In this document: positions 12,444 to 64,000 of the stretch, in pieces
Numbering within the stretch: the stretch's first letter is position 1
How the letters are laid out: each line of letters begins with the position of its first letter
Assembly: GCA_043817155.1 (NCBI GenBank)
Contig: JBDRHE010000059.1
Coordinates: 97 to 64,096, forward strand
Reading direction: 5' to 3'
DNA: 64,000 bases
Source: Candidatus Omnitrophota bacterium
GTDB taxonomy: Bacteria > Omnitrophota > Gorgyraeia > JABMRN01 > RBG-13-46-9
Made by a program: the position numbers and the translations under genes
The notes under the pieces: generated by a model
Databases searched by the model: none
Told to the model about the DNA's origin: nothing
What the model saw: the letters and a program-made list of their open reading frames with translations, nothing else

Positions 12444-12444
12444 A

Positions 12445-37668: not shown

Positions 37669-38303
37669 CTCTTAACCGCGCCCCTTTCAGTCCTTAAGTT
37701 TTTACGCCTTACCATTTTGGCTTTTTTGAAATCTGACGCTGTGTCGATGTCCACAGAAACTTCGTTATCCATAGCGTAATACGCGATCTTTTTCAGGTTA
37801 AATGTTTTTTTCTCTAGCAACTTATCCGATTTTATGATATAGATGGCGCCGTTCGGAGCGTAAGCAAGGCGCCTGTCGGACTTTGCAACACTTATTAAAG
37901 AGTCCACCTTCTTCTTAAAAAAAAGTTTTAGGGCGCGGTCGATATCCGTTGCCGCTCTGAGAGGCGAAGTAGGCTGTAAGAGAATAACTGCGTCGAAATT
38001 CTGCATCTTTTTCCTGAAACGATCTGCCACGTACGCCGCGACCTCTGTGGCGCTTACCGAATCGCCGCAGAGTCTCTTAGGTCGCATAAAAGGCACTGAA
38101 GCCCCGTATCTTTTCGCGATAGCAGAAATTCTCTTACAATCCGTACTAACTACCACTCTATCGAGAAATTTACTCTTTTTCGCCTCCAGGATAGTCCATA
38201 TTACAAGCGGTTTCCCGAAAAAAAGTTTTAGATTCTTTTTCGGCAAGCGCCTGCTTCTACCCTTAGCGGGAATAACGCCCAGTATTGAATTGTTTTTATA
38301 CAC
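37665..38303 (-). CDS. Acylneuraminate cytidylyltransferase family
   Basis: ILGVIPAKGRSRRLPKKNLKLFFGKPLVIWTI P-loop region. Confidence 0.7.
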   Translation of the reverse strand: MYKNNSILGVIPAKGRSRRLPKKNLKLFFGKPLVIWTILEAKKSKFLDRVVVSTDCKRISAIAKRYGASVPFMRPKRLCGDSVSATEVAAYVADRFRKKMQNFDAVILLQPTSPLRAATDIDRALKLFFKKKVDSLISVAKSDRRLAYAPNGAIYIIKSDKLLEKKTFNLKKIAYYAMDNEVSVDIDTASDFKKAKMVRRKNLRTERGAVKR

Positions 38304-45034: not shown

Positions 45035-45718
45035 CTATCTATTCTCCTTTTTTCTGATCAATTCAGCCCAATTTTGGTATATCTTAAGGCCCTGCCCGGC
45101 GCTTCTTTCCGGATGAAACTGACAGGCAAAAATATTATCACGCTCAAGACTTGAGCAATACCTGATGCCCTCATAGGATGTGTATGATAACACGCTATCA
45201 TGCGTATCCGGCGCCACAAAGTAGGAGTGCACAAAATACATGAATTCCCCATCCCGGATGCCCCTTAACAGCGAGTCCTCCCAATAATCACCCTTTTTAT
45301 CATCGGGCCTCTTTAACTTATTCCATCCCACCTGCGGCACCTTCATGCCTTTATTGGAATCCCTTCCGGAAGAAAAGTTGACAACGGAACCTTTTATTAT
45401 ATTCAGGCCCTCGTGAACACCGAACTCTTCACTTTTCGTAAGCAAAAGTTGCATCCCTAAACATATACCCATAAAAGGTCTCCCCGTACCGATAAAGTCT
45501 TTGATCGGGCCTGCCAGATCCAATTTTTTAATATTACGCATGGCAATTCCAAACGCTCCCACGCCCGGCAATATTGCCGAGTCGCTGTTTACTATACCGG
45601 CGCTATCTGAAGTAATAAAGGCGCTTAGCCCCGCGTGTTCACAGGCCCGCTTTATGCTGAACAGATTGCCCATACCGAAATCTATTATAGCAACGTTTGA
45701 CTTAGAATTTACCGGCAT
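45035..45718 (-). CDS. HisH-like class I glutamine amidotransferase (WbuY/AglY-like)
   Basis: VAIIDFGMGNLFS; GVGAFG; catalytic ICLGMQLL; FHPE. Confidence 0.85.
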   Translation of the reverse strand: MPVNSKSNVAIIDFGMGNLFSIKRACEHAGLSAFITSDSAGIVNSDSAILPGVGAFGIAMRNIKKLDLAGPIKDFIGTGRPFMGICLGMQLLLTKSEEFGVHEGLNIIKGSVVNFSSGRDSNKGMKVPQVGWNKLKRPDDKKGDYWEDSLLRGIRDGEFMYFVHSYFVAPDTHDSVLSYTSYEGIRYCSSLERDNIFACQFHPERSAGQGLKIYQNWAELIRKKENR

Positions 45719-46589
45719 AAACGTCTTTCCCCTTTAGCGCTTCCCTGCATGGTATCCCGTGTTCGGACAGGAAGAACTTTATCTCGCTTAAGTTTGTCGG
45801 TCTAATTTTAGAAAAGATACGTCCGCTCTTTGCATACTCGAGATTTCCTTCGAGAGTATAATCGCCTTCATTAATTTTTCTGCGTTTGATGAAATCGTAA
45901 TGCAGAATTGAGGCAAAGCTTACTGCGTCAGCCTTCCCGTCAATAATTACATCTTTAATGTGGCCGGTTTGGCCTGCGCCCCCACAGGCTATGACCGGGA
46001 TAGACACTGTCTCCGAGATTTTACGCGTTAACTCCAGGTCGTAACCGATCCCCGTTCCTTCGCGATCAACAGAGGTCAGCATGATCTCACCGGCGCCAAG
46101 TTCGGTAACCCGCAAGGCCCACTGGCATACATCCATTCCGGTATGCTCTCTGCCGTTGTCGGTAAAGGCCTGGTAGCTGCCATCCGGTTGCTTGATAGCC
46201 TCTATAGAAATAACGATGGTTGATGATCCGAATTCCCTTGAGGCTTCACGAATGATGTCCGGGTTATTGATAGCCGCGGTATTAAGACTTACCTTATCCG
46301 CGCCGGCACGCAAGACCTCTTTTATGTCCCGAAGAGTCCTTATCCCCCCGCCGACCGTCAGGGGTATAAAAATGTCCCTGGCTGTCTTCTCGATTATCCG
46401 ATTCAAACTGTTGCGCCCGTATAAGCTGGCGACAACATCCATATAGATAAGTTCGTCCGCTCCGGTTTCGTAATAATACTGCGCGAACTCTTCGGGTTTG
46501 CCCAGAACCCTCAGGCCTTCCAGGTGAATGCCCTTGACTAAATTGGGCCCTTTAATATCCAGACGCGGTATAATTCTTATGTATTTCAA
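45702..46589 (-). CDS. HisF-like cyclase subunit (WbuZ/AglZ-like)
   Basis: RIIPRLDIKG...DELIYMD...TVGGGIRTLRDIKEVLRAGADKVSLNTAA is the HisF (beta/alpha)8 signature. Confidence 0.85.
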   Translation of the reverse strand: MKYIRIIPRLDIKGPNLVKGIHLEGLRVLGKPEEFAQYYYETGADELIYMDVVASLYGRNSLNRIIEKTARDIFIPLTVGGGIRTLRDIKEVLRAGADKVSLNTAAINNPDIIREASREFGSSTIVISIEAIKQPDGSYQAFTDNGREHTGMDVCQWALRVTELGAGEIMLTSVDREGTGIGYDLELTRKISETVSIPVIACGGAGQTGHIKDVIIDGKADAVSFASILHYDFIKRRKINEGDYTLEGNLEYAKSGRIFSKIRPTNLSEIKFFLSEHGIPCREALKGKDVYAGKF

Positions 46590-47308
46590 AACCCGCTTTC
46601 CTTATTTAAACGTGAATCTATAACTGCTTTGGCTAACGTAAGATCTTTCCTGGTATCGATATCTACAACCGTTTCGTTTACAATCATCGCTTTAATCCTG
46701 TCGCCGTAAATCGAGTAAAGAAACCCCGCCTTATATGGAATTTCTTTTGTAAATTTTTTATAAAATTTCTGCGCTTCAAACACGAGTGTATGGCCGTCAT
46801 GAATCATAAGCTTAGGCAATGCCTGCCTTCTGTAATGCGCTTCCCTCTTCATGGGTAGTTCGCGGTCAGTAAATTCAAACATCCATTCCGGATGATACTT
46901 CTCGATTCTTTGCATACTGATGACGGCGTCATAACTCCGATTTTTTCTTAAAAAAACAATGGCATCATAAAATAATTGTGGATACCGCGTCGGAATATTT
47001 CCGTATACGAGACTGCAATATCGGTACCCGGCCCCCTCTCTCTCGATAGCATCTGCCAGTACGTCATCGATCCTGCTTGCGTCACCGCACAACTTGCTTG
47101 GCCTGCTGATGTATGGAATTTTCTTCCTTTTGCAATAACTTATTACCCGCTCAATATTTGTCGATACGACCGTTTTTACCTCCTTCCCCAGCGACAAAGA
47201 GTAATCGATAGCGTATTCGGCCGCCATTCTGCCCCTTATTCCTCTGGTGCACTTGTCTCTTAATCCCTTGCTGCCTTTTCTTGCGCACACAACTGACAAT
47301 GTTTTCAT
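46586..47308 (-). CDS. Acylneuraminate cytidylyltransferase family
   Basis: LSVVCARKGSKGLRDKCTRGIRGRMAAEYAI P-loop-like region; weaker than the other paralogs. Confidence 0.55.
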   Translation of the reverse strand: MKTLSVVCARKGSKGLRDKCTRGIRGRMAAEYAIDYSLSLGKEVKTVVSTNIERVISYCKRKKIPYISRPSKLCGDASRIDDVLADAIEREGAGYRYCSLVYGNIPTRYPQLFYDAIVFLRKNRSYDAVISMQRIEKYHPEWMFEFTDRELPMKREAHYRRQALPKLMIHDGHTLVFEAQKFYKKFTKEIPYKAGFLYSIYGDRIKAMIVNETVVDIDTRKDLTLAKAVIDSRLNKESGF

Positions 47309-47319
47309 AATAAATTCCC

Positions 47320-48780
47320 CTAAAAGATATCGATTCCGCCATGCTCGGCACGGTGCTTTAATAATGCTTCGTCCTTAAAATAATCATCAGCCATGTCTCC
47401 GAAAAGATTCGTCAACTTGGCCATGTAACTTTCCTCGGTCTCCGGTTTGATTCGCGAGCGTACCTCGGATATCATCTCTTCTCTTTTGGAAATAAGTTCG
47501 GTATCTGTAAACACATTGGTTAAATTAATAAGAAAATCTCTGGCGTCCCCCATGGACATCACAAAATCATGTATTCGGTCCTTTTTGATTCGGCCTGTTC
47601 TGAGAGCGTACTCAAAAAGTTGCGTTCCCGGGTACGGCACGGCAAACATAATGGATTTTAGTGGTATATTATTTCTTACGCAAAACTCTACGGTTTTGCG
47701 GCATGATTCAACGTCCTCTTCCGGCATCCCTATCATAAAGCTTATAGGTAACATCATCTTATATCGCCTGTTTAACACGACCGCGTTCTCCATCTGGGCT
47801 ATCGTCACGTTCTTCCCCATAGACGCGAGCATCCCTTGAGAGCCGGATTCAAATCCATAAGATATGGACACACATCCGGCGCTCTTCATCCTTCGCACAA
47901 TATCATCGTCAACAAGGTTAACGCGCCCGGTACAGGACCACAAAAGTCCCGGAACGTTTCTCTCGATCTTCTCACAGAACTCATATATGCGTTTCTTTCC
48001 CATCAAAAACTCGTCATCCTGAAAAGAGATAAAGTCCACTTTATATTGTTTCCTTAAATACACAAGCGCCTCGACTATAAAATCAGCCGAATGCGCCCTG
48101 AAATTTCTACCCCAGGGTTGATAACAAAATACGCAGTCGTATGGGCATCCCCGGCTTGAGATAAAATCTATATCCCTTCCAAGACCTACCACGGGATTGG
48201 AAAGGTAAATTTCCATCGGAAGTAAATCGTAAGCCGGCAGATCGCTTTCGATATCGAGGTCCTGCAGTAGCTCCTGTTTCCCGGAACATATTATTTCGCC
48301 GTCAATTTTAAAGTAAAACCCCTTTACATTCGTCAATTCGCTAAAGGCGCCTCCTCCGGCCAGTCCTTCGATAAGGTCAACCATAGCCTTTTCACCTTCA
48401 CCCGCGCAAACAATATCTACATTCGAATGACGCAGCAAGACCTCGGGTACCGACATTGCCACGCTGCCACCCGCGATCACTATTGCCTCCCGATTTATTG
48501 CTTTTATAATGCCGGCATACTCGACAATAACCCTGTAAACCGGTATTAGACCTCCCATAAGGACTATATCAAAAGGCATCGAATTCAAAATTGACTTTAG
48601 CTCCGTTTTTGTATAGCGATGCGCGTTAGCGTCTATAAACGTTGGAGTTATACCCGTCTTCTTTCGAATAACATTCGCCAGAATAGCCAGGCCATGAGGT
48701 ATGTGCCTCGGTTTATCGTTTAAACGTATCGGAGGATTAATAATTATTATTCTGGGTAATTTTTTATTCAGTTTTGTCAT
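47320..48780 (-). CDS. Cobalamin-binding radical SAM enzyme
   Basis: B12-like N-terminus (IVLMGGLIPVYR...VIAGGSVAMSVPE); SSRGCPYDCVFCYQPW. Confidence 0.8.
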   Translation of the reverse strand: MTKLNKKLPRIIIINPPIRLNDKPRHIPHGLAILANVIRKKTGITPTFIDANAHRYTKTELKSILNSMPFDIVLMGGLIPVYRVIVEYAGIIKAINREAIVIAGGSVAMSVPEVLLRHSNVDIVCAGEGEKAMVDLIEGLAGGGAFSELTNVKGFYFKIDGEIICSGKQELLQDLDIESDLPAYDLLPMEIYLSNPVVGLGRDIDFISSRGCPYDCVFCYQPWGRNFRAHSADFIVEALVYLRKQYKVDFISFQDDEFLMGKKRIYEFCEKIERNVPGLLWSCTGRVNLVDDDIVRRMKSAGCVSISYGFESGSQGMLASMGKNVTIAQMENAVVLNRRYKMMLPISFMIGMPEEDVESCRKTVEFCVRNNIPLKSIMFAVPYPGTQLFEYALRTGRIKKDRIHDFVMSMGDARDFLINLTNVFTDTELISKREEMISEVRSRIKPETEESYMAKLTNLFGDMADDYFKDEALLKHRAEHGGIDIF

Positions 48781-50570: not shown

Positions 50571-51515
50571 TTAGTCGATATCCATAAGATCCGTATACAC
50601 TTCCTGAAGAAGTGACGCGTTCGGATAATAATCCAAGAAATCCTTTACTGTCGAACGGTAGTCATTTTTATTTGTATCGGAAAAATAGTTTTTCCAAATA
50701 CCGATTTTTCCTGTCCAGCCACGCGGATACTTGGTTGAATTACTGCTGTTGTTCTCGGTATGCTTTTTGGCACCTTTTACAATTACGTTACACTTCTTCG
50801 CGCAATCCTGACTCACTGGAAATCCAACCAAGAAATTAGACATCACATTCAACGTCTCCTCTGTTTTTAAGACAAAGTCCTCGTATTTCAGTATCAGTGA
50901 CCTTTCTGCATTCCTGAAACGCAACCAATCAACCATCCAGCTGAGTGTCGCATTTAGATATCCTTCCCGTATCAAACATTGGAGGGATTCATTTATATCA
51001 ACTCCGTTTCTAAAAACCCATCCAGGAACCGGATAGACATTAGTCTTTACCCATCCGTTCTTTTCGTGCTCCTCTGCCGAAATAAGATAATCGCAAATGT
51101 TGCAATATAATGCAACAATCTGATCTGCAGGATGCCTTAACAGTATAATGTACTTAACTCCCAACAACTCTAAAACCTTCAGATTCTTGCCTGTCGCGCG
51201 TGTGTGAAATTTTAATACCCCTCCTTTCGGAAAGTCTTTTACCAATTCGGGCCGTAAATCCGAATCCCTGTTGGCGAGCATATATTTCGCATAGGACCTT
51301 GATTTCTTACTGACCATAGACAGAATCTCGGCGACGCATGAACCGATAACCGAAGAGGCGGACTTTGGTATAGCCGCTATAATTGTGAGGCGATCTTTAA
51401 AATAATTCTCTTTTAATTTTTTATTAGCTTCTTTGTTGGCTAGCAGATCCCTAATGGCCGCAATAACAGAAAACGGCAGATGTCTCATCTCGGGGATCTG
51501 GTTAGATCTTTTCAT
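50571..51515 (-). CDS. Putative sulfotransferase-like protein
   Basis: Degenerate 5'-PSB-like IIAAIPKSASSVIGS and 3'-PB-like YIILLRHPADQIV; tentative. Confidence 0.35.
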   Translation of the reverse strand: MKRSNQIPEMRHLPFSVIAAIRDLLANKEANKKLKENYFKDRLTIIAAIPKSASSVIGSCVAEILSMVSKKSRSYAKYMLANRDSDLRPELVKDFPKGGVLKFHTRATGKNLKVLELLGVKYIILLRHPADQIVALYCNICDYLISAEEHEKNGWVKTNVYPVPGWVFRNGVDINESLQCLIREGYLNATLSWMVDWLRFRNAERSLILKYEDFVLKTEETLNVMSNFLVGFPVSQDCAKKCNVIVKGAKKHTENNSSNSTKYPRGWTGKIGIWKNYFSDTNKNDYRSTVKDFLDYYPNASLLQEVYTDLMDID

Positions 51516-52732
51516 CCCAATAACTCCTTATTCTGACGTAAAAATTCCGAGCCAATCCGCAAAAGAAAGAGTTTATTTAGGTAGCTGGGTTTAAATAGAG
51601 ACCAGAAGCTACGCTGGAGCTCCTCATCCTCTTCTGTGGTTCTCCATCTTCCGTTCAAACGATCATCCATCTCACGAACCATATCAGCGATCTCCTCCGG
51701 TGTATTGTCAACCACCTCTATCCCTTCCTCAGCAAAATGCTCGGTCATAATGAACCTGCCCACACCGGAATCTATGACCTCCCGGAATGTTAATAAACGG
51801 TCCTCGCCTTTCCTACGATACTTCTTGGCAATTAAGAGCCCCCTGGAATCCCATGTAGGAATATACTCAAGGGGAGCTAGGTTTGACCACGCTATCGGCT
51901 TTCGAAAAATCCATGGAACTGTAACAAGGCCCGAGGCAGAACTTATAAAGAATCTGCAATTGGCGCATAGATAGATATCCAGAAAATCGTCTCTACACTT
52001 TGTCGCATAATCTATAATTCTCGGGTTCTTAACTCTTAGTGGCGCATTAACAGCGGCGCCCATTCTCACAACAAAGTATCCACGCATGACCAACTCTTCG
52101 GCCGTCAAGATATAATTTTCTACATCCACATCCTTGTAATCCTGATAGCTTGAATCAAGCTTTGGATGAATTTTGTCAAGATAGGCCGAATCCCTTGCAT
52201 GAAAACAGACAAAGGGAACACCTTGTGGGATTCCCAACTCTCTCAACTTCTTCTCCCCAATCTCAGTCTCCTTTTTGGTAAAGAAGAGGTGGGGCGATCT
52301 CAAGCAGTAACCACTTATATCCCTATCCGTAGGCAATTCGATGGTGTGCAATTTTCCACCCGGCAAAAATCTGTTAACCTTATCTAGAACGTGTGCATAC
52401 TGAAATATATGTATGTGGCGGCCCAGCATCCTCTTAAGCTGTTGATTGCATACCTCATACATAGACTGTAAATAGAAGATGTCTATCGTTCTCTTGCCGT
52501 ACTCATCATCATCACGTTTGCAAAGATAATGTTCCGTTTGAGCGGCGAAGTGGCCGATTCTACTGCTTGCCAGAAATCCAAAACGCATAGTGATGATAGG
52601 GCGCAATAGCCGCACAATGATAACGATTAAGAATGCCGGAGGCATCGATAATAGGATAGCGCACTTTTGCCTAAAGACACGCAATCCACCATTGGTTATC
52701 ATTCTTATTTGGCGCTTAAAAAACTCTGTCAC
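51512..52732 (-). CDS. Hypothetical protein with N-terminal TM helix, possible GT-B-like glycosyltransferase
   Basis: Hydrophobic N-terminus; no firm motif. Confidence 0.3.
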   Translation of the reverse strand: MTEFFKRQIRMITNGGLRVFRQKCAILLSMPPAFLIVIIVRLLRPIITMRFGFLASSRIGHFAAQTEHYLCKRDDDEYGKRTIDIFYLQSMYEVCNQQLKRMLGRHIHIFQYAHVLDKVNRFLPGGKLHTIELPTDRDISGYCLRSPHLFFTKKETEIGEKKLRELGIPQGVPFVCFHARDSAYLDKIHPKLDSSYQDYKDVDVENYILTAEELVMRGYFVVRMGAAVNAPLRVKNPRIIDYATKCRDDFLDIYLCANCRFFISSASGLVTVPWIFRKPIAWSNLAPLEYIPTWDSRGLLIAKKYRRKGEDRLLTFREVIDSGVGRFIMTEHFAEEGIEVVDNTPEEIADMVREMDDRLNGRWRTTEEDEELQRSFWSLFKPSYLNKLFLLRIGSEFLRQNKELLG

Positions 52733-54665: not shown

Positions 54666-55348
54666 AGCGAATATTCCGATCTTTTGTTACAACCTATGCA
54701 TACTAGATAATGCGCCATCTCCGTATAACCTGTATGTACCACCTCGTCATTGATCCCGAAAAGAAATACGTTTCTGAATATTCCTTGCATGGAGGTTTTC
54801 AAACGGGATGAGTCGAACATGTTAAGATGGCCTTCCTTACTCGCGGGTGACGCATAGGCTCGAGCTCTTATGTTAGGTGTACCGACAATGCCTATACCGT
54901 CCTCTTTTAAGTTGCTATAAATAGTGTCAAAGAAACGCTGTTCGCTTGATAGCGCTATATGTTCAACGACGTCTAAGCTTACAACCGTATCAAATTGGCC
55001 ATAAACTCGTCCCAGGAAATCATCTTTCATGAATGATATACGGTCGTTTGACCAGTTTTGCGTTGCTACCTCTATCGCGCTTACATCGGAATCTACACCT
55101 CTGTAACTCTTGGCAAATTCTGTTAGTATCGGAACGCCCATTCCTTCGCTGCACCCCAGCTCCAGGATGCTTCTGTCCTTAGACCCCACCTTAGCGGCAA
55201 ACTTATATCTGGAAAGGACGAAAGCCAGACGTTTGGGATCGTTCTTAAGATTGTAGGACCAATGTCGTCCGAGCGTCATCTGGCGATCACCAAGCATGTC
55301 TTTAACCCTTCTCCATACCGCTTTCTCGTTAATACCCTTATTACTCAT
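54662..55348 (-). CDS. Class I SAM-dependent methyltransferase (tandem paralog 2)
   Basis: ILELGCSEGMGVPIL; VSLDVVEHI; VVHTGYTEMAHYLVCIGCNKR. Confidence 0.75.
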   Translation of the reverse strand: MSNKGINEKAVWRRVKDMLGDRQMTLGRHWSYNLKNDPKRLAFVLSRYKFAAKVGSKDRSILELGCSEGMGVPILTEFAKSYRGVDSDVSAIEVATQNWSNDRISFMKDDFLGRVYGQFDTVVSLDVVEHIALSSEQRFFDTIYSNLKEDGIGIVGTPNIRARAYASPASKEGHLNMFDSSRLKTSMQGIFRNVFLFGINDEVVHTGYTEMAHYLVCIGCNKRSEYSL

Positions 55349-56285
55349 TGCTTATGCCCTTCCAGTTTGCCGCGACACGTTCTATGCAATCTGAAATTGG
55401 CGTAAAACCTATATCAGTTTCTCGTACTAATCGCTCTGTGCGCATGCTGGTATTCTTGGGACGCATAGTATTGAATCCGATTTCGTCTAATGAAACTCGA
55501 GAGATCTTACGGGTATCGCATCCCAGCGCTCTTGCCATCTCTATTGCCAGATCATACCGCGACCACCTCTCGGGCGAGCATACATTTACTACCCCGCAAA
55601 TCCCCCTGCTTTGCAGATCTGCCACCACCCTGACCAGATCTGATCTAAGCGTGGGGCAGAATATCTGATCATGGGCAGCCCTGATAGTACCGCCGGACAT
55701 AAGGATCCCTGCCATCTCGTCAAGCAGCGTGCCATCGTTTCTATTTAGCGAAAAGATCTTGCTCAGACGGATAATCAGGTAGTTTCCTTCGGTAATTTCG
55801 TCTATCTTCTTTTCAACCTCGGCCTTATGCCTGCCATACTCTACTATGGGAGATCTATCTGATTTATCCCTATAACCGCCTGAATAGCCATCAAATACAC
55901 AATCGCTCGAAGTAAATATGGGTTTCATACCTGAAGCAGCAAGTTGTCTAATAAGCTCAAGGGTACCATCAACATTAACTTTTCTGCTAAACTCCTTATT
56001 CTTTTCGCATTCAGAAATATCCGTGATCCCGGCAAGTATGAGAGCGTCTTTATAGCCTCTCTCCTTAAGCTTGAGACGACTTGTGTTCACCTCGAGAAGA
56101 TCCAATCGAGAGTCGCTTTGCTCTTCCTTTCTGCGAACTGTGCCTACACAATCTCGATGACTGGTCCGATAAGCTTCGAAGAAAGCAGAACCTAAATACC
56201 CGGACCTGCCTATTATTACGGTCTTGGGCAGTTCCAGTGGCAACTGCAAGTCGCTTAGTTTCTTTGCACCCTCTTTTATAAACAC
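55341..56285 (-). CDS. RmlD-like NAD(P)-dependent sugar-nucleotide reductase (SDR fold)
   Basis: VIIGRSGYLGSAF Rossmann motif; YGRHK (YxxxK); overall RmlD_sub_bind-like organisation. Confidence 0.6.
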   Translation of the reverse strand: MFIKEGAKKLSDLQLPLELPKTVIIGRSGYLGSAFFEAYRTSHRDCVGTVRRKEEQSDSRLDLLEVNTSRLKLKERGYKDALILAGITDISECEKNKEFSRKVNVDGTLELIRQLAASGMKPIFTSSDCVFDGYSGGYRDKSDRSPIVEYGRHKAEVEKKIDEITEGNYLIIRLSKIFSLNRNDGTLLDEMAGILMSGGTIRAAHDQIFCPTLRSDLVRVVADLQSRGICGVVNVCSPERWSRYDLAIEMARALGCDTRKISRVSLDEIGFNTMRPKNTSMRTERLVRETDIGFTPISDCIERVAANWKGISNE

Positions 56286-56289
56286 GCTT

Positions 56290-57051
56290 CTACTCCTTTA
56301 TAACATACGCTGCCGGGGCATTGGTCCATGACAGTGTCTTAATCTTGAATCCCTGCTTTCCCCCGAAAAACTCATCAACGGCTCTCGTCTCTCCTTGCCA
56401 TTCCGGCATCGAATATTCATCAAATAGCATAAGGCCGCCTGGCGAAAGAATCGGCCAGAGAGATTGGAGGGCCACTTTTGTAGGTTTATAAAGATCGCAG
56501 TCAAAATGAATCAATGAAAATCGAACCCCGCTATTTTCATTGACGAAATTAGGAACGGTCTCTTCTATGTCGCCCCTTACGAGTTTTATACGGGATTTCC
56601 ACGGTATAAATCTGTCCTCGTCAAATATCGCGATCGCCTCCCGGAGCTCCTCATAGTATTTGTCCGGGCTGAATCCTCCTTCAAACTTTTCAACCTCATC
56701 GGCGCTCTTGCCATCCTCAGGAGCAAGTTCACCAAAACCTTTCCAGTTATCGAACCCATAAACGACCTTCGTGCGGTCACCGATACAATAGGCCTCCAGA
56801 AGATTGGCCCAGGTCATAAGACCTAGGCCCCTGAAAACTCCGAGTTCCGCGATATCTCCTGGAACCTCAAGGGTCTTCTTGAAGAGTTCCGCATGCGCCA
56901 GGAATCTCTTGAGCCATTGCCTGCGAGCCAAAACGGGAAATAGCTTAACTGCATTCAAGGGGTCAATATGAAATTTCCGGCAGAAGTCCTCTATTCTGTC
57001 CTCTATGCTGGAATCCACCCCAGTCTTCTTAAATCCGTCAAACTCTCTCAT
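56290..57051 (-). CDS. Class I SAM-dependent O-methyltransferase, TylF/MycF (macrocin-OMT) family-like
   Basis: IAELGVFRGLGLM motif I; acidic residues D...D typical of metal-dependent sugar O-MTs. Confidence 0.55.
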   Translation of the reverse strand: MREFDGFKKTGVDSSIEDRIEDFCRKFHIDPLNAVKLFPVLARRQWLKRFLAHAELFKKTLEVPGDIAELGVFRGLGLMTWANLLEAYCIGDRTKVVYGFDNWKGFGELAPEDGKSADEVEKFEGGFSPDKYYEELREAIAIFDEDRFIPWKSRIKLVRGDIEETVPNFVNENSGVRFSLIHFDCDLYKPTKVALQSLWPILSPGGLMLFDEYSMPEWQGETRAVDEFFGGKQGFKIKTLSWTNAPAAYVIKE

Positions 57052-58057
57052 ATTTAGCAGCCTCCTTCAAATTGAATATATTGTACGCGTCTAATGGTTT
57101 AGGCCTATCTACGTTAGGCATAATATACGTATCAATAAACTCCTTGCTCTCCCCGCACAAACAGGACGGGTATTCCCCGTTAAACCAGGCGCTGCTTAAT
57201 AAACTTTCGCGCATCTCGCCAAGTGTTTTGTCGCGAATATTTCCAAGTGTAAACTGCATAAAATTGCAGGGAAGAAAGTGTCCGTCTGCAGATAACGCCA
57301 TAAATTCAGTGCCCGCAGGACAGTGGTCTTTCTCTCCGGAGTATATATCCCTATTCACCATTCTCTGCCCGTTCTTTAGCACCGGGGAATCTATCTGGAG
57401 TTGCTTAATATATCTGGAGTCTTCGGGGTTTACAAGGAGCTCTCTTCTGCCATCCCACTTGCCCCACGGCTCCGCTATCTGTACCTCCAGTCGTATACCT
57501 TTGGACTTAGCGTATTCATATGCTTTCTTAAAGCCGGTGTTATATAGCGATTTGTGCGTTACAACAATAGAGATTGAAACCAATAGCCCTTCTGACAACA
57601 CATAATCTATAGATTCAAGCACCCTCTTATAAGAGCCGGTCCTCCTGTTTGCATCATGTTCCTCCTCTATACCGGAATCGAGACTGAAAGCGATCTTATC
57701 AACCTTGAGACTCTTAAGCCAACGAATCTTATCCAGAGACATATTCCATCCGTTTGTAACGACGTTCAGATAGGTCTCGTCCGGATAACAAGAACGCAGT
57801 ATCGTTTCAAGGCGTTCAGGATCTTCAATCGGCTCGCCTCCCTGAAATACATAGTGGAATACTCCCAGGTTATATGCTTCGTCCAAAGTACTCTTCAATA
57901 TGTTCATTTCTACAGGCTTTACATGTGCAAAGGTTTCGGCGTAACAGTGAGTACACCTCATATTGCAGCGGGGAGTAACGTCAAGCGCAATAGTCCTTAA
58001 GGCCCCATTCTTATGTTCGTATTGCTTTTTATGTAACCTATTTTTTTCAGAATACAT
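57038..58057 (-). CDS. Radical SAM / SPASM-domain enzyme
   Basis: TPRCNMRCTHCYAE; C-terminal CPAGTEFMALSADGHFLPCNFMQF...CLCGE. Confidence 0.8.
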   Translation of the reverse strand: MYSEKNRLHKKQYEHKNGALRTIALDVTPRCNMRCTHCYAETFAHVKPVEMNILKSTLDEAYNLGVFHYVFQGGEPIEDPERLETILRSCYPDETYLNVVTNGWNMSLDKIRWLKSLKVDKIAFSLDSGIEEEHDANRRTGSYKRVLESIDYVLSEGLLVSISIVVTHKSLYNTGFKKAYEYAKSKGIRLEVQIAEPWGKWDGRRELLVNPEDSRYIKQLQIDSPVLKNGQRMVNRDIYSGEKDHCPAGTEFMALSADGHFLPCNFMQFTLGNIRDKTLGEMRESLLSSAWFNGEYPSCLCGESKEFIDTYIMPNVDRPKPLDAYNIFNLKEAAKYERV

Positions 58058-58070
58058 GCCTTACTTCCTC

Positions 58071-59180
58071 TTAAACAAATTCCAGGTGTTCTCTATCCTG
58101 TTCTAAATATTCTAAAACAAGCTTGTTCTTTACATTCGCCACACAGTGATGGTTGCATGCCGCTCGGGGATCAATTTTAAAGAATTTGCTTTTATCCAAA
58201 AACCAGAAATCCTTAAACCTTCTCTCTTTTATAGATCCGATCAAGCCGTCTTTCAGGTTATATGCTTTGTCCTGGCACGGATATATATTCAGGTCTGCGC
58301 CGATGACAGGGAGAATCTGAAGATACGGACACCATGAATACTCTTTGTTGAATCTCTCTTCAAGGGTATGGTATGAATCGTTTATCTCAAAACCATCATC
58401 GGCAAAGTCATTCACCATTCTCCCGATCGCTTCTTTAACCGTATCAAATATGGAACTGTGATAAAGATTGTTCTCTGCGCCGTCATTGCTGACAATACAG
58501 GGTGAGATCTTCACATTATCTATTCCAATATCCTTAAGTCTTTTGACAAATTGGTATATATGAGCAGCGTTAACCCTATCGACTATTATGCTGACGCCCA
58601 GAATGCATTTGCCGCCCAATTTTTTGAAGCGCTCTATATTACTCATTACCTTTGCAAATTCCCGCCTATCCACACCCCTGTATCCGGAGTAGCTCTCTTC
58701 ATCCCACCCATCCATTGAGACACGAAGCCATGTTCCGTAACGCGCAAAGATCGCAGCCAAATCGCCATCCAACAGTGATCCGTTCGTCAATGCTGCAAAT
58801 TTGACCGAGCTCGATCGCAACCTGTTAATAGCTTCCGTAAGGTGAGGGTAGCAGAGGGGTTCCCCCCCTCCGCTAAAGGTAACGGACTTAACCCCCATCT
58901 CTACTATGTCATCCAATATCTCCATCACTTTCTCCCTGGGAATCTGGTCTCTCCTATTCATATCCTTCCCGAGTTGCAGCCCGTCCACCCTGTATGCACA
59001 ATATCTACAATTGTGATTACATATGTTTGTTGGCTTTATCCTTATATGGATGGGGTTCATCACCCTGTCTACAGAGGGCGAGAGAGAGTCTATCTTATCC
59101 ATATAATGGAATATCTTAAGATTCGAGTATATAACCTTCTTATGACAATTCCTGTTCCTAGTCGAAGTATATGAACTCAT
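58071..59180 (-). CDS. Radical SAM enzyme with C-terminal Cys-rich (SPASM/twitch-like) region
   Basis: TNICNHNCRYCAY; C-terminal CPYLQ...YPCQD...CNHHC; start uncertain, one candidate Met follows an AAGGTGAT RBS-like sequence. Confidence 0.7.
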   Translation of the reverse strand: MSSYTSTRNRNCHKKVIYSNLKIFHYMDKIDSLSPSVDRVMNPIHIRIKPTNICNHNCRYCAYRVDGLQLGKDMNRRDQIPREKVMEILDDIVEMGVKSVTFSGGGEPLCYPHLTEAINRLRSSSVKFAALTNGSLLDGDLAAIFARYGTWLRVSMDGWDEESYSGYRGVDRREFAKVMSNIERFKKLGGKCILGVSIIVDRVNAAHIYQFVKRLKDIGIDNVKISPCIVSNDGAENNLYHSSIFDTVKEAIGRMVNDFADDGFEINDSYHTLEERFNKEYSWCPYLQILPVIGADLNIYPCQDKAYNLKDGLIGSIKERRFKDFWFLDKSKFFKIDPRAACNHHCVANVKNKLVLEYLEQDREHLEFV

Positions 59181-59820
59181 AATCACCTTTATATCCAAAC
59201 TCATTAAACAACCATATCCACTCTTCGGGTCTAAAGAATCCCTCGCAAGTAAGCGCCCAGCACTGGAGGTTCGTAAGCTCCTCCTCGGTTCTATAGCTCT
59301 CAACTGCTATGTATTTATATTTACCGACCCTCTCGATCTCCTTCAAAGATGACTTTAGGTCGTTTATAAGAAGATTGTGCAGGGTTGTTATGGATATTAC
59401 AAGATCAAACTCTCCGTCCTTAAATGGGAATTTATCCTCGGCCCTATATACAAAGAGAGACTCCCTTATCTCCTCCTTTGCATTCTCTATGGCATATTTT
59501 GAAACATCGAAACCCATAACGCTTGACAGCGGAAGTAGCTTTTTAAACTCATAAAGCAGAAAGCCCTTTCCGCAACCCACATCCAGGATCCTGGCCTTTT
59601 GGGGAAGACCATACAACTCTTTAAGTCTCTCCGCGACAACGCTCCAGCGCCCGTCGTATCTGTACCCGCCGTAGCCATACCTTCTCTCCCCATCCCAGTA
59701 TTCTTTCCCATATTCCCTGGCGGTCTTCATACATCCGGCTTTACTGTTTGCCATTCTACCTGTATAGTCTCTTTTTGTCTTCTTATGCAACGGGTTTATT
59801 GCGCTAATCAATCTTCCCAT
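59158..59820 (-). CDS. Class I SAM-dependent methyltransferase
   Basis: ILDVGCGKGFLLYEF; MGFDVSKYAIE; start uncertain (several in-frame Met between 59754 and 59847). Confidence 0.7.
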   Translation of the reverse strand: MGRLISAINPLHKKTKRDYTGRMANSKAGCMKTAREYGKEYWDGERRYGYGGYRYDGRWSVVAERLKELYGLPQKARILDVGCGKGFLLYEFKKLLPLSSVMGFDVSKYAIENAKEEIRESLFVYRAEDKFPFKDGEFDLVISITTLHNLLINDLKSSLKEIERVGKYKYIAVESYRTEEELTNLQCWALTCEGFFRPEEWIWLFNEFGYKGDYEFIYFD

Positions 59821-59857
59821 AAGGCCCTCTCTTCTCTTTAAAACCATTATCCTTTTG

Positions 59858-60907
59858 CTAAACAACCTTATCGCCTTGAGAGCGGGGCATATTCTGGACA
59901 TAACCACCCCCGTGGGTTGTAACCGCAAACTTTCCAAGGCACAAATTAACGAGCTCCTCAAAAGATGATTCACAATCCTTTATCTTTTGATATGCTCTCG
60001 GGATCCCATGTAGATCTACTCTATTACGGGCACGCAATCGGCCGACTTCGGCAAATCCTATTTTTGGCAATAACTTGTCATAATTAATGGAATGGCGAAG
60101 TGGTTTCAGCTTGGAGCTATCTCTTATGTAGAGATATCCTCCTTTACGCAGTACCCTGGATGTTTGAGACATGAGCCATAGAATGCCTGCAGAATTTATT
60201 TCGTTAAGTACCCATGTCGCGGTAATAAGATCTATAGAGCCACTCTCAACGATACCAAAATGCCATGACGGAATATGCTTAAGTCTATATTCAGGATGTT
60301 TGTTTACAAGCGCTTTGATGGAACTCTCGCTTAAGTTAAAATTCTCACATTCAACGACATCCAGATATATCGCTTCACCTCCTGACAAGAACCTGAAGAA
60401 GTCGCGTTGGATCGAATAGCTGTGCGGACTTGCTTCAAGGGCGTAAAAGTTAGAATCGAATCCTTTCCGACTATAAACGGCATGCGTGCCAAGACCCGGA
60501 CCAATGTCCAGATGGTTTATAGGAGAGCTTATTCCCCCACAAAAACTGCGCAATGCGCAATAATCCTGTGCCCTCACTACAGCATTGCACGTAACGCTCT
60601 TCTTGAAATCGTCTTCCATATCGCTTGGGAACGGAACGAAATGACGATATGCTTTAGATAGACACTCTTCGATGGTCCTTAGCATTTCATCATAGTCATC
60701 TGTCCTTATTCTCTCGGGTGTGGGGTACTGCTCAAAGAACATTGTAAGATACTGCAGGAATGCCTGCGGGCCATGAACAACCTCCACTTTTGACAGCTGA
60801 TCAGCATCAACCCAGGAGAACGGATTACCTATGCGATGTAGCTTCTCGCCATACGCCCAGCCCTGGCTTATAAAGGCCCTATTCAACGAACGAATAATAT
60901 CTTCCAT
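59858..60907 (-). CDS. Class I SAM-dependent methyltransferase
   Basis: HLDIGPGLGTHA motif I; LRKGGYLYIRD motif. Confidence 0.65.
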   Translation of the reverse strand: MEDIIRSLNRAFISQGWAYGEKLHRIGNPFSWVDADQLSKVEVVHGPQAFLQYLTMFFEQYPTPERIRTDDYDEMLRTIEECLSKAYRHFVPFPSDMEDDFKKSVTCNAVVRAQDYCALRSFCGGISSPINHLDIGPGLGTHAVYSRKGFDSNFYALEASPHSYSIQRDFFRFLSGGEAIYLDVVECENFNLSESSIKALVNKHPEYRLKHIPSWHFGIVESGSIDLITATWVLNEINSAGILWLMSQTSRVLRKGGYLYIRDSSKLKPLRHSINYDKLLPKIGFAEVGRLRARNRVDLHGIPRAYQKIKDCESSFEELVNLCLGKFAVTTHGGGYVQNMPRSQGDKVV

Positions 60908-60920
60908 ATAACTCCTTTGA

Positions 60921-62681
60921 TTACTGTATGCATCTTACCTTCTCTGACCCATCTACAGCCAGAGCCGAGAGAAAATGCCTGAAGACCAGACCGCTTAAAC
61001 TGACACCTGAATCATTAATTCTATTCAAGAATCGATCATATAATTTACTATAGAGCAACCTATAACGCCCATAGGTACTATCGAAAAAGCTACTTGCTTC
61101 CTCTCTCAATCTCTCATCCGTACAATCATCCGATATGAGATCTATTATGTTGTTGAAGTACTCATATTGCCGCTTGCCCACTTCTTTATTTAGTTGTTCG
61201 TAGTTATTCTTAAACTGCAGATACTCATCTTGCAACATTTCAAAAACCTTTCGATTCATCCTGTTAGTCATCCTTGCGATCAGGTTGCCTATATTTGTCT
61301 GTAATGAGTGTACTTCCCTGGTATTGGGAAAACGCACCAAGAGACTCTCCCAATGACCGGTAACGCGCGCCGCCAGTGGATCCCTTATCTTATACTTTGG
61401 CAATTCCCAGTGCCTGCCTGTTTCAATTACCCTCCCTTCTCTTTTAAGCCGATCATAGATCTCGGAATCCCGGATAAGCATTAAAACATTCGAAACAAAA
61501 TTTATATTGTCCGTAAAATCATATTTATGTAAAAATTCAATATTCTCTCTAAGCGTCTCCTCCGTAGAGTTTGGCCCAAACATAATGAAACCTGTTAATA
61601 CATAAAAGAGGTCGAGATCCCTTAAGATCTTTGCGGTGCGATGATTGTCTTCAACTGTTGCCTTCTTTCCGTAAAGCTTGATCTCACTATCGTTGGCAGC
61701 GTCAGATCCAATGATAACGACATCGACCCCTGCCTCCTTATATAGCTTTAAAAGCTCAATATCCTCTTCGCCCCTCCATGAATCACAGCGCAGATAGACC
61801 TTTGCGGAAAAGGGAACCCCGCGCCTTATAATGCCTTCGCAGATACGGCGCGATCGAACCTTCCCGAGTTTACCCGGATCCTCAAAGGAACTATCAGAAA
61901 AATTGAATACCCTGGCGCTGTAACGCTTGCTTAGGTACTCTACCTCATCGATTACCCTTTCCGGCGATCTTCCTCTCCACCTCTTACCCGCATGAACCTT
62001 GTGATAAAAGTTGACTGCGCAAAAACTGCAATTGCCTACACAGCCCCTGGAACTTATCATGCGCACACTCTCTATAAGACCGCCATCTACTAAATCCCTC
62101 TTTGCGTCTTCCAAAAGATCCCTTGCCGGAAAAGGTAATGTATCCAGGTCCTCTATAACGCATCTCTGCCTGTTTCTTATGATGTCGCCCGATTCATTTC
62201 GCCACACAAGCCCGTCTATCGAGTGGAGATCAGTTCTCTTGGCCCCTACTGCCTTTAATAGCTCCAGGGTCGTTACTTCACCTTCCCCCAAGATTATGAA
62301 ATCGTAAAGAGGTTCTTCTTTTAGTATCTCTTCCGACTTCGAGCACAGAAATGGGCCGCCAAAGATCGAGATCGACTCTGGTCTTACCGATTTGATCTTT
62401 GCGACTACCGTCCGAACCGGATGGTAATTTACCGTATTCAGCTGAAACCCATATATGTCCGCTGAGATCCCGGTTATCTCATTCTCATCGGTGATTAAGG
62501 CAAAAGTGTCACCCTCTCTTCTTACAAAGCATTGCTTGAATATTACATTATATTCCTGGTCTCTTAAGTACGCACCTACGCAAGCTATGCCGAGGGGAAT
62601 CTCCTGTTCATACTGGTAGTCGCCTTCTGTAACGACATTCATCATAGCAACTGTTAGATTGCGCGCACTCATACCTTGCAA
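60921..62681 (-). CDS. Cobalamin-binding radical SAM enzyme
   Basis: B12-like N-terminus (ISIFGGPFLCSKSEE); SSRGCVGNCSFCAV. Confidence 0.8.
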   Translation of the reverse strand: MQGMSARNLTVAMMNVVTEGDYQYEQEIPLGIACVGAYLRDQEYNVIFKQCFVRREGDTFALITDENEITGISADIYGFQLNTVNYHPVRTVVAKIKSVRPESISIFGGPFLCSKSEEILKEEPLYDFIILGEGEVTTLELLKAVGAKRTDLHSIDGLVWRNESGDIIRNRQRCVIEDLDTLPFPARDLLEDAKRDLVDGGLIESVRMISSRGCVGNCSFCAVNFYHKVHAGKRWRGRSPERVIDEVEYLSKRYSARVFNFSDSSFEDPGKLGKVRSRRICEGIIRRGVPFSAKVYLRCDSWRGEEDIELLKLYKEAGVDVVIIGSDAANDSEIKLYGKKATVEDNHRTAKILRDLDLFYVLTGFIMFGPNSTEETLRENIEFLHKYDFTDNINFVSNVLMLIRDSEIYDRLKREGRVIETGRHWELPKYKIRDPLAARVTGHWESLLVRFPNTREVHSLQTNIGNLIARMTNRMNRKVFEMLQDEYLQFKNNYEQLNKEVGKRQYEYFNNIIDLISDDCTDERLREEASSFFDSTYGRYRLLYSKLYDRFLNRINDSGVSLSGLVFRHFLSALAVDGSEKVRCIQ

Positions 62682-63613
62682 CCTTTGCGGTCGTATTTCA
62701 GTAAAGATACCGCAGCATCCATGATATGGCGTTTCGAAAGGCCGTTCAATTCTTTCATCTCCTGGTATGTTCCGTACCCCGAAGGGAATACACCTTTTAA
62801 CCCTAACCGTTTGAACCTGACAGGCATATTCCCCTCTTCGAGTATGACTTCGGCAACAGCGCTGCCTAAGCCACCGAAAATCGTATGCTCTTCAACAGTT
62901 ATAATGGTTCGGGTATCACGAGCCGCAGCCAATATGATCTCTTTATCTATCGGTTTTATAGTATGAATGTTTACCACCCTGGCGGAGATACCGGATTCCT
63001 CCAGCTCATATGCCGCCTCGAGAACATCCTTAAGTATACCGCCGGTGACTATAAACGTGATGTCCCGGCCTTCTTTCAAAGTTACGCCTTGTCCGGTTTT
63101 AAATTCATAATCTCTGCTATATATCTGTGGGCTCCCACCGGTTGCGAGCCTGATATAAACCGGGCCATCGATCTTTCGGGCCGCAAAGGTTATCTTTCTA
63201 GATTCCATCGGGTCGGCCGGGGAAAGAATTGTCATATTCGGCAAAGCCCTCATCAGGGCAATGTCCTCTACCGCATGATGCGTAGGACCTAAATCGCTGT
63301 ATACGAATCCTGCGCCTATGCCAACGAGTTTGACATTCATCTTCTGCATGCAAACATCATTTCTTATCTGTTCAAAGGCCCGCATGGTAAGAAAAGCGGA
63401 GATCGTATACGCAAAAGGGATCTTGCCGCATGAGGCAAGACCGGCCGCGACACTTACCATGTTCGCTTCGGAAATCCCGAAATTTAAGAATTGATCTGGA
63501 AACTCCTTGCGATATTTATCATACACAATAGCGCCGTTGTCCGCAACCAGGGCAAGGATCCTATTATCGTTCTTTGCCAGCCCATAGAGCGCCTCTATAT
63601 ATGCGTTTCTCAT
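62669..63613 (-). CDS. Transketolase, C-terminal (pyrimidine-binding) subunit of a split transketolase
   Basis: FLNFGISEANMVSVAAGLA...GPTHHAVEDIALMRALPNMTI is the transketolase Pyr-domain signature; ~314 aa matches the split-TK B subunit size. Confidence 0.85.
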   Translation of the reverse strand: MRNAYIEALYGLAKNDNRILALVADNGAIVYDKYRKEFPDQFLNFGISEANMVSVAAGLASCGKIPFAYTISAFLTMRAFEQIRNDVCMQKMNVKLVGIGAGFVYSDLGPTHHAVEDIALMRALPNMTILSPADPMESRKITFAARKIDGPVYIRLATGGSPQIYSRDYEFKTGQGVTLKEGRDITFIVTGGILKDVLEAAYELEESGISARVVNIHTIKPIDKEIILAAARDTRTIITVEEHTIFGGLGSAVAEVILEEGNMPVRFKRLGLKGVFPSGYGTYQEMKELNGLSKRHIMDAAVSLLKYDRKGCKV

Positions 63614-64000
63614 TATATCTTTTCCTCGAAATCGGCAATGTCCAGCTCTTTACACGCAATTTTCATCTCTTCGGCGTTTGGCAATCTGTAATGCCAGATA
63701 GGGGCATTTTCCATAAATGAGATCCCTTTGCCTTTAGTGGTATTGGCCACTACAAGGCCTGGTTTGCCCTTTCTGAAGGGAACATCTTTAAATACACCTA
63801 CCAGCTGTGAAACATCGTGACCGTCTACCTCTTCTACTTCCCACCCAAACGCCTTCCATTTATCGACCATCGGGTCCAGTGACACTATATTCTCGAGTCT
63901 GTCCATAGCTTGAAATCTGTTGTTGTCTATTATGACTACAAGGTTATCAAGCTTATGCTGCGGGGCAAATAGCGCAGCTTCCCATACCGAACCTTCCTGA
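63613..64000 (-). CDS. Transketolase N-terminal (ThDP-binding) subunit, 3' end only; gene continues beyond the window
   Basis: C-terminal part GKPGLVVANTTKGKGISFMEN...WHYRLP typical of the TK N-terminal subunit; reading frame open to the window edge. Confidence 0.7.
   Translation of the reverse strand, partial: QEGSVWEAALFAPQHKLDNLVVIIDNNRFQAMDRLENIVSLDPMVDKWKAFGWEVEEVDGHDVSQLVGVFKDVPFRKGKPGLVVANTTKGKGISFMENAPIWHYRLPNAEEMKIACKELDIADFEEKI

Follow-up and report, generated by a model that had tools for sequence, protein, structure and literature searches.

A split transketolase-like gene pair with a non-canonical substrate pocket at the edge of a sugar-tailoring cluster of an Omnitrophota bacterium

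The transketolase gene pair

The window analysed here is a stretch of 64,000 nucleotides from a Candidatus Omnitrophota bacterium (GenBank assembly GCA_043817155.1, contig JBDRHE010000059.1, positions 97 to 64,096), and the element in question is a pair of transketolase (TK) subunit genes at its high-coordinate edge (Table 1). A first-pass annotation of the same DNA had described the N- and C-terminal TK subunits as separate genes, and this was confirmed by Pfam matches. The C-terminal subunit (TK-C), encoded by the last complete long open reading frame (ORF) at this edge, matched Transket_pyr (PF02779) with an E value of 9.2e-31 and Transketolase_C (PF02780) with 8e-28. The gene of the N-terminal subunit (TK-N) is cut by the end of the window. 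Its frame is open from 63999 to the TAA at 63613-63615 (128 codons plus stop) and matched profile positions 157-256 of 334 of Transketolase_N (PF00456; E 3e-11). Full-length TK-N proteins of relatives have 271-281 aa, so just the C-terminal ~47% of the subunit falls inside the window, and the 97-aa ORF 63613-63906 of the ORF list is a window-edge artefact. Neither an exact look-up of the TK-C protein nor a search of metagenome contigs for identical 50-mers yielded DNA beyond position 64000.

Every profile places the enzyme in the transketolase type rather than with DXS or E1. The highest scores went to transketolase models (244 bits, versus 182 for DXS and 78 for E1-beta). At 100% identity, TK-C matches a protein in NCBI that is annotated as a transketolase and comes from a 137,462-bp contig of a Candidatus Omnitrophota metagenome-assembled genome (MAG); the next best database proteins are at most 77% identical, and the relatives found in a scan of genome contigs at most 73%.

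The TK-N stop and the TK-C start have one base in common (TAATG), with GAGGA 8 nt upstream. TK-C in turn overlaps the gene of a B12-binding radical S-adenosylmethionine (SAM) enzyme, hereafter B12-rSAM. The 13-bp overlap given by the first-pass annotation holds with a TTG start at 62681, but an in-frame ATG at 62672 appears at least as likely as the start and would shorten the overlap to 4 bp (ATGA). The three genes are co-directional and have zero intergenic space under either start codon. Consensus scans of positions 55000-64000 found promoter and terminator sites no more numerous than in shuffled sequence, and no such site lies in a gap between the three genes because no gaps exist there. 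Co-transcription, as originally stated, is plausible from the gene arrangement. The minus strand carries all long credible ORFs of the window, most of which overlap slightly or are separated by short gaps, and GC skew is below zero in 32/32 two-kilobase bins (1-64000). These features suggest one very long array of genes running in the same direction.

Table 1. Positions of the transketolase genes and of the neighbouring features discussed in the text.
Feature	Position	Strand	Family matches
TK-C, transketolase C-terminal subunit (Pyr + TKC domains), complete, 314 aa	62669..63613	(-)	PF02779 + PF02780
TK-N, 3' part of the N-terminal (ThDP/PP-domain) subunit gene, runs past window end	63613..64000	(-)	PF00456
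B12-binding radical-SAM, class B, methyltransferase-like	60921..62681	(-)	Radical_SAM 2.7e-18, B12-binding 1.8e-12
Methyltransferase-like protein, 349 aa, window-specific	59858..60907	(-)	Methyltransf_23 E 4.8e-06, just under cut-off
SAM methyltransferase, MT229 ortholog	59158..59973	(-)	Methyltransf_31/11/25; 64% identical to L081 MT229
Radical-SAM, rSAM356 ortholog	58071..59303	(-)	Radical_SAM 2.3e-25; 66% identical to L081 rSAM356
TIGR04372-family glycosyltransferase	51512..52732	(-)	234 bits vs cut-off 45

Substrate-pocket signature

To compare the pockets, 85 split TK C subunits from public genomes were aligned with E. coli TktA, human TK and the split TK of Carboxydothermus hydrogenoformans, and residues were numbered as in E. 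coli. TK-C of the window keeps the canonical R358, E411, F437 and H473. At the other five positions it has Ile for S385, Ile for F434, Gly for H461, Leu for D469 and Thr for R520. The canonical state is that of 83 other split TKs, the C. hydrogenoformans enzyme, human TK and E. coli TktA; canonical split TKs, mostly from Clostridia, have S or A at 385, followed by F434, H461, D469 and R520. All proteins at least 55% identical to TK-C of the window have its pattern from 358 to 520. The exceptions in the clade are position 520, occasionally G, A, V or I, position 385, with V or M at two loci each, and position 461, with A at one locus.

In transketolases, the sugar-phosphate site consists of R358, S385, H461 and R520, the acceptor C2 hydroxyl is bound by D469, and E411 is the cofactor-activating glutamate. 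One of the four phosphate ligands (R358) is left in TK-C, and the acceptor-binding D469 is replaced by Leu. Compared with canonical transketolase (EC 2.2.1.1), the protein lacks the intact phosphate site and Asp469 and has E411, H473 and the Pyr and TKC domains. The acceptor channel looks enlarged and more hydrophobic, with most phosphate ligands lost. Mutation of R358, S385, D469 and R520 opens E. coli TK to bulky, non-natural acceptors (PMC7661550).

Donor binding involves H66, H100, G114 and H473, of which H100 is Phe in the pyruvate-using DXS (PMC7661550). H26, H66, H100, G114, D155, N185 and H261 are all present in the N subunits of full-length clade relatives, each of which also has the GDG...N metal-diphosphate motif. 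In the window gene, the GDG, H26, H66 and H100 codons would fall past position 64000. Three motifs of the clade N subunits are altered: SGHPG to GGHI, NGxQIDG to N(K/R)xQAMD, and WHG to WHY or WHF. The TK-N fragment of the window reads DNNRFQAMD, in which the Asn is N185, and WHYRLP, in which the His is H261 and Gly262 is replaced by Tyr. To judge from these residues, the enzyme appears able to catalyse ketol chemistry with a hydroxylated C2 unit.

Phylogenetic position and size of the family

A comparison with housekeeping enzymes by phylogeny had been suggested in the first-pass annotation. In a neighbour-joining tree, TK-C of the window fell into a monophyletic clade with proteins from Omnitrophota, Planctomycetia, Bacillota (Lachnospiraceae, Syntrophomonas) and Nanoarchaeota. 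The sister groups in this tree are likewise non-canonical and come from Acidobacteria, Parcubacteria, archaea and another Omnitrophica. The canonical split TKs, among them the C. hydrogenoformans enzyme, fall outside the superclade formed by the window clade and its sisters.

A HMMER scan of 1.84 billion cluster representatives gave 2,641 matches at E <=1e-30. Among the best 150 representatives (50%-identity clusters), the canonical F434/H461/D469/R520 set is confined to about 20, and about 130 have varied non-canonical pockets around the invariant E411, F437 and H473. The split-TK relatives form a large and diversified radiation that is essentially uncharacterised. A search of a plasmid collection returned matches of at most 46% identity in apparently catabolic contexts and no member of the clade.

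The Acidobacteria-type sister clade (L013, L016, L113-L129) has the signature R-G-E-I-F-G-M-H-K. A TylC3-type nucleoside diphosphate (NDP)-sugar C-methyltransferase gene directly follows TK at 13/17 of these loci, and at some an E1-beta-like protein, 23-27% identical to TK-C, is encoded a few kb upstream. Two TK pairs are present at L101. The A358/A469 group of the Clostridia loci L054, L055, L063 and L079 forms a clade separate from that of the window.

The cassette conserved in relatives

On annotated contigs with the 70-77% identical proteins, the TK genes lie in a cassette with the order GalE-like short-chain dehydrogenase/reductase (SDR), nucleotidyltransferase plus PfkB kinase, SIS/GmhA-like isomerase, second SDR, TK-N, TK-C, methyltransferase and radical-SAM enzyme. 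No pentose-phosphate genes were seen beside the TK pair in these annotated relatives. Synteny was counted at 33 unique loci of the clade, drawn from both genomes and metagenomes and covering four phyla, with the informative loci as denominators. TK-N was found at 31/31 loci and the methyltransferase MT229 next to TK-C at 22/25; the HldE-like gene was found at 16/19 and the GmhA-like gene at 13/19. As a control, loci of at least 8 kb were compared: sugar-module neighbours were present at 36 of the 45 non-canonical loci versus 2 of the 70 canonical TK loci.

Directly upstream of TK-N lies either a Cj1427-like SDR gene (11/23) or a SPASM radical-SAM gene (10/21). The two are mutually exclusive (for example L081:8162-9178 versus L086:6638-7705; loci L001-L012 and L081-L110), and neither is present at 2/23 loci. 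Their alternation suggests a non-orthologous displacement in which a radical enzyme that needs no oxygen has taken over one oxidation step, and the fact that they never occur together fits two alternative routes to the carbonyl proposed below. The best solved relative of the second SDR is 6vo6 (E 8.4e-44), presumably the GDP-heptose C4-dehydrogenase Cj1427. This function of Cj1427 itself is documented (PMC10680097).

The HldE-like enzyme (L081:6035-7567, L088:6030-7562, L086:63-1589) has the nucleotidyltransferase domain at its N-terminus and the PfkB kinase domain at its C-terminus, the reverse of the order in E. coli HldE. It scored 168 bits against an NCBIfam equivalog cut-off of 521, and the GmhA-like protein 113 against 209. 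Because of these low scores and the reversed domains, the substrates of the two enzymes need not be canonical. The nearest structure to the kinase domain is 4e84, a genuine heptose-7-phosphate kinase. The GmhA-like isomerase retains the catalytic His and the SIS phosphate motif ISSSGxSEN, and from this motif a phosphorylated ketose would be its substrate. Because the cassette has no GmhB, a non-phosphorylated route consisting of TK, isomerase and anomeric kinase with no phosphatase was considered; it was rejected because of the SIS motif and because the gmhB gene of C. jejuni, too, is located outside the heptose cluster (PMC10680097). Formation of 7-deoxy-sedoheptulose from 5-deoxyribose, as salvage of a radical-SAM by-product, was dropped on the same ground.

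The sister clades have no heptose genes; their TK genes lie between SDR genes and a DegT aminotransferase gene, or directly before a TylC3-type C-methyltransferase gene. DegT aminotransferases and TylC3-type C-methyltransferases act on keto-sugar nucleotides. A description of the heptose-linked cassette of the window clade, sought in the literature as transketolase with heptose, GmhA, O-antigen or flagellin glycosylation, was not found.

Two observations at single loci were made in addition. A Lachnospiraceae MAG encodes a more divergent split TK (L044:9177-10927) with H26 replaced by F, R358 by I, H461 by G, D469 by L and H473 by Q. It adjoins the same HldE-like, GalE-like and radical-SAM genes. 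Either the heptose module has been joined by a TK-like enzyme a second time, independently, or the catalysis of this enzyme is possibly altered. At the related locus L081, a YerE-like gene occurs separately.

The surrounding cluster

The downstream half of the cassette is present in the window as the MT229 and rSAM356 orthologs (Table 1). The true start of the MT229 ortholog is probably near 59847 or 59820. Homology of the rSAM356 ortholog begins near 59135, and this protein gave weak sub-threshold family matches only, of the MoaA, viperin, twitch and W-cofactor maturase types. Two genes without counterparts elsewhere stand between these orthologs and TK-C: the B12-rSAM gene and the methyltransferase-like gene at 59858-60907, for which no counterpart was found in the related loci. 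The B12-rSAM enzyme had sub-threshold NCBIfam matches only, to BchE, HpnJ and PhpK-type enzymes, and is at most 24% identical to the B12-rSAMs of related loci. It is a window-specific insertion and no conserved partner of TK. A functional partnership of TK with the B12-rSAM, the gene stressed in the first-pass annotation, was rejected on this basis; the conserved partners are the MT229 and rSAM356 orthologs.

Annotation of 57 ORFs of at least 150 aa with Pfam and NCBIfam showed that the window is a very large sugar-tailoring cluster with many SAM methyltransferases, sulfotransferases, glycosyltransferases, a carbamoyltransferase and two ABC exporters. Neither GmhA nor HldE was found among these ORFs, nor was there a Pfam match to a condensing synthase of the NeuB/KdsA type. 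The TIGR04372-family glycosyltransferase is 47-48% identical to genes of the related cassettes L086 and L088 and is a candidate transferase for the modified sugar.

The window locus is unusually rich in radical enzymes for sugar tailoring. Six B12-rSAM paralogs are encoded on the minus strand (5262-6788, 16691-18319, 27427-29097, 31354-32865, 47320-48780 and 60921-62681), with 21-28% identity to the B12-rSAMs of related loci. Four further radical-SAM genes have a SPASM match (1712-2815, weak; 18177-19211; 34854-35852; 57038-58057), and two have none (19193-20326 and 58071-59303). Five minus-strand genes encode CTP_transf_3 cytidylyltransferases resembling CMP-Kdo and CMP-nonulosonate synthetases (15951-16694, 24016-25383, 25390-26133, 37665-38303 and 46586-47308), that at 24016-25383 being fused to a GT2 glycosyltransferase. 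A HisH-like glutamine amidotransferase and a HisF-like cyclase are encoded as a pair at 45035-46589 (-). In known surface-sugar clusters, HisH/HisF-like pairs are linked to amidino or related N-modifications. A HAD phosphatase gene (11802-12518) and a D-2-hydroxyacid dehydrogenase gene of the SerA/glycerate-dehydrogenase family (13370-14464) lie two genes apart on the minus strand. The two enzymes could in principle yield hydroxypyruvate, a classic non-phosphorylated transketolase donor; the pair is not conserved at related loci.

Proposed function

The gene pair very probably encodes a specialised and not a housekeeping transketolase, because the substrate channel is remodelled and the synteny with nucleotide-sugar genes crosses phyla. 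It would be a heterotetrameric carboligase, dependent on thiamine diphosphate (ThDP), that was recruited from sugar-phosphate metabolism to nucleotide-sugar tailoring. As its reaction we tentatively propose, with somewhat less than even confidence, that a nucleotide-heptose, once oxidised, receives a hydroxyacetyl (C2) unit and becomes a branched or extended sugar of nine carbons.

In the scheme that we infer, acceptor, donor, regiochemistry and order of steps would be as follows. Sedoheptulose-7-phosphate would be converted to a nucleotide-heptose by the GmhA-like isomerase and the HldE-like kinase/nucleotidyltransferase, which are known from the relatives and presumed here. The nucleotide-heptose would then be oxidised to a keto or aldehyde form by the NAD-dependent Cj1427-like SDR or the SPASM radical-SAM enzyme encoded directly upstream of TK-N. 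A dihydroxyethyl-ThDP carbanion, formed on the TK from a non-phosphorylated or unusual ketol donor, would add a hydroxyacetyl C2 unit to the new carbonyl, and the product would be a nine-carbon sugar nucleotide, branched or chain-extended. The conserved downstream methyltransferase and radical-SAM enzyme may subsequently modify the adduct, for which the window would add the extra B12-rSAM and methyltransferase.

A hydroxylated C2 donor is favoured because H100 and H473 are retained. With the phosphate site lost, the donor would not be a normal ketose phosphate, which makes hydroxypyruvate a candidate. The nucleotide diphosphate could be bound by the remaining R358, which lies at the mouth of the channel. 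The nucleotide-sugar reading is strengthened by the sister clades, which lack heptose genes and adjoin enzymes of keto-sugar nucleotides. The first-pass annotation had suggested a ThDP-dependent two-carbon ketol transfer onto a sugar. Such a transfer is the best-fitting reading and has a proposed precedent (PMC12247030); the data are compatible with a branch and with chain extension alike.

Several points weigh against this proposal. The dehydrogenase, GmhA-like and HldE-like genes, which make up the upstream half of the cassette, would fall beyond position 64000 and are presumed here by extrapolation from relatives. Three clade loci have no MT229 nearby, four with 10 kb of downstream sequence have no close rSAM356, and the Bacillota versions of the cassette are without the SDR. 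Transketolases normally take aldehydes, and ketone acceptors are unusual. R358 is retained and may still bind some phosphate or diphosphate, so that a sugar-phosphate substrate would fit as well. The Streptomyces precedent for hydroxyacetyl transfer is unproven in vitro (PMC12247030).

Alternative explanations

An ordinary transketolase, either housekeeping or dedicated to the cluster as a supplier of sedoheptulose-7-phosphate for heptose synthesis, is very unlikely. Sedoheptulose-7-phosphate is indeed both a transketolase product and the substrate of GmhA (PMC10680097), the respective genes adjoin in relatives, all cofactor and catalytic residues are intact, and the database label is transketolase. 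However, every member of the clade has other residues in place of S385, H461, R520 and D469, which canonical split TKs conserve; the C. hydrogenoformans enzyme, known to be biochemically active, is one of these canonical TKs. The tightest partners of the pair, the methyltransferase and the radical-SAM enzyme, have no role in precursor supply, and pentose-phosphate genes are not nearby in the annotated relatives. Members of the window clade occur in Lachnospiraceae and Syntrophomonas, whereas Clostridia commonly have canonical split TKs, and the counts of the control do not fit an ordinary enzyme either. A housekeeping TK adjacent by chance, which the first-pass annotation had named as the outcome that would overturn its proposal, is contradicted by the clade pocket, the cross-phylum synteny and, through the relatives, the missing pentose-phosphate neighbours. 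It is also unlikely, though less so, that TK acts before activation and extends an aldose phosphate, longer or 2-substituted, by C2 to, for example, octulose-8-phosphate, from which the GmhA-like and HldE-like enzymes would make a higher-carbon NDP-sugar, in the manner of the lincomycin octose route compared below. Such a route would be in keeping with the close neighbourhood of these two genes, with their scores far under the equivalog cut-offs and the reversed HldE-like domain order, with the SIS phosphate motif of the GmhA-like isomerase, and with the presence of R358. Loss of three of the four phosphate ligands of TK argues against it, as does the nearest structure to the kinase domain, a genuine heptose-7-phosphate kinase (4e84). 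Moreover, the gene directly upstream of TK-N encodes a dehydrogenase of nucleotide-sugar type and not an isomerase, and the sister clades, with Ile434, Gly461 and a non-Asp469, lie among NDP-sugar enzymes without isomerase or kinase.

Another reaction of the TK type, such as cleavage of a ketol side chain as by DesAB, or delivery of a glycolyl group to an amine or hydroxyl as by Rif15 and the two-component TKs of tetrahydroisoquinoline pathways that form glycolyl-acyl carrier protein, is quite improbable. Split TKs (DesAB, Rif15, two-component transketolase) have reportedly been neofunctionalised repeatedly, the best 150 cluster representatives have very diverse pockets around the invariant E411, F437 and H473, and the pocket of the window enzyme appears hydrophobic and enlarged. 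On the other hand, the pair has no conserved neighbour that encodes a carrier protein, a lipoyl domain or an acyltransferase, and the conserved upstream dehydrogenase better fits the making of an acceptor carbonyl. Cleavage of the TK type was rejected for the side chain of an oxidised heptose on chemical reasoning: C5 bears the ring oxygen, and a pyranose heptose therefore has no free hydroxyl in the position alpha to a ketone of the side chain. Within the hydroxyacetyl-transfer proposal itself, there is a slim chance that C7 + C2 is a phosphoenolpyruvate (PEP)-independent route to nonose-type sugars beside NeuB, PseI and LegI, whose products would then be handled by the numerous cytidylyltransferases resembling CMP-sugar synthetases. 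If true, this route would explain why no PEP-condensing synthase occurs in the 64 kb. The related suggestion of the first-pass annotation, that TK substitutes for the missing synthase, agrees circumstantially with the lack of a NeuB-type match and the several CMP-sugar-synthetase-like genes.

Significance

The participation of a split-gene TK in nucleotide-sugar tailoring is an idea that has been proposed earlier and never demonstrated; the same idea is here applied to other phyla and another functional setting. If it is true, uncultivated bacteria and archaea would have a widespread, diversified class of transketolase-type ThDP enzymes that tailor nucleotide sugars, a role proposed until now for two Streptomyces antibiotics. 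A compact cassette would be available for branched or extended nine-carbon sugars from sedoheptulose-7-phosphate; on the much less likely PEP-independent reading given above, C7 + C2 condensation would open a second way to make nonose-type surface sugars. The enzymes would also be natural templates for carboligases with bulky, non-phosphorylated acceptors, at the same positions that are targeted by transketolase engineers. A simple sequence signature separates them from housekeeping transketolases. The identical database annotation of both kinds misleads the reconstruction of the pentose-phosphate pathway in MAGs.

Comparison with known systems

The split TK of C. hydrogenoformans (6YAJ/6YAK; PMC7661550) has the same two-gene alpha2-beta2 architecture, domains and cofactor and catalytic residues, and is the best solved relative of TK-C (6yaj, E 2.7e-78). 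It keeps S385, F434, H461, D469 and R520 and belongs to the canonical clade, whereas in the window enzyme, which is encoded in a glycan cluster, these residues are replaced by I, I, G, L and T, respectively.

For miharamycin and amipurimycin, split-gene TKs have been proposed to move a hydroxyacetyl group to a keto sugar formed by the preceding oxidoreductase (PMC12247030, citing Romo 2019, Zhang 2021 and Krug 2024), and 13 further bioinformatic candidates are all from Streptomycetes (PMC12247030). These TKs are likewise encoded by split genes in sugar-tailoring clusters, with the oxidoreductase first and a C9 branched sugar as product; in the relatives of the window pair, a Cj1427-like SDR or SPASM radical-SAM gene lies directly upstream of TK at 21/23 informative loci. 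The miharamycin and amipurimycin enzymes belong to Streptomycetes, to secondary-metabolite clusters and to nucleoside-linked sugars. In contrast, the window clade comes from other phyla, occurs in clusters of the cell-surface-glycan type and is tied to heptose-nucleotide genes; the two groups of putative sugar-tailoring enzymes are likened by context.

YerE, AviB1/AviB2 and KbDH-alpha/beta (PMC9306805, PMC12247030) are also ThDP-dependent and add a two-carbon acyl anion to a keto nucleotide-sugar, the E1-types being two-subunit enzymes. YerE and the E1-type enzymes belong to other branches of the ThDP superfamily and attach an acetyl branch from pyruvate, whereas the window clade keeps H100 and H473. 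DesAB, a steroid-17,20-desmolase, and Rif15 are said to be two-gene transketolases acting on non-phosphorylated substrates. Their reported substrates are steroids and ansamycins, and their genomic contexts are unrelated to that of the window clade. The octose route of lincomycin reportedly runs from the transaldolase LmbR through the GmhA-like LmbN to a kinase and a nucleotidyltransferase. As described, it likewise has a C-C enzyme of pentose-phosphate type beside a GmhA-like isomerase, a kinase and a nucleotidyltransferase, leading to a higher-carbon NDP-sugar. LmbR is said to transfer C3 between sugar phosphates through a Schiff base, whereas the window enzyme is of the ThDP transketolase type and has lost most phosphate ligands.

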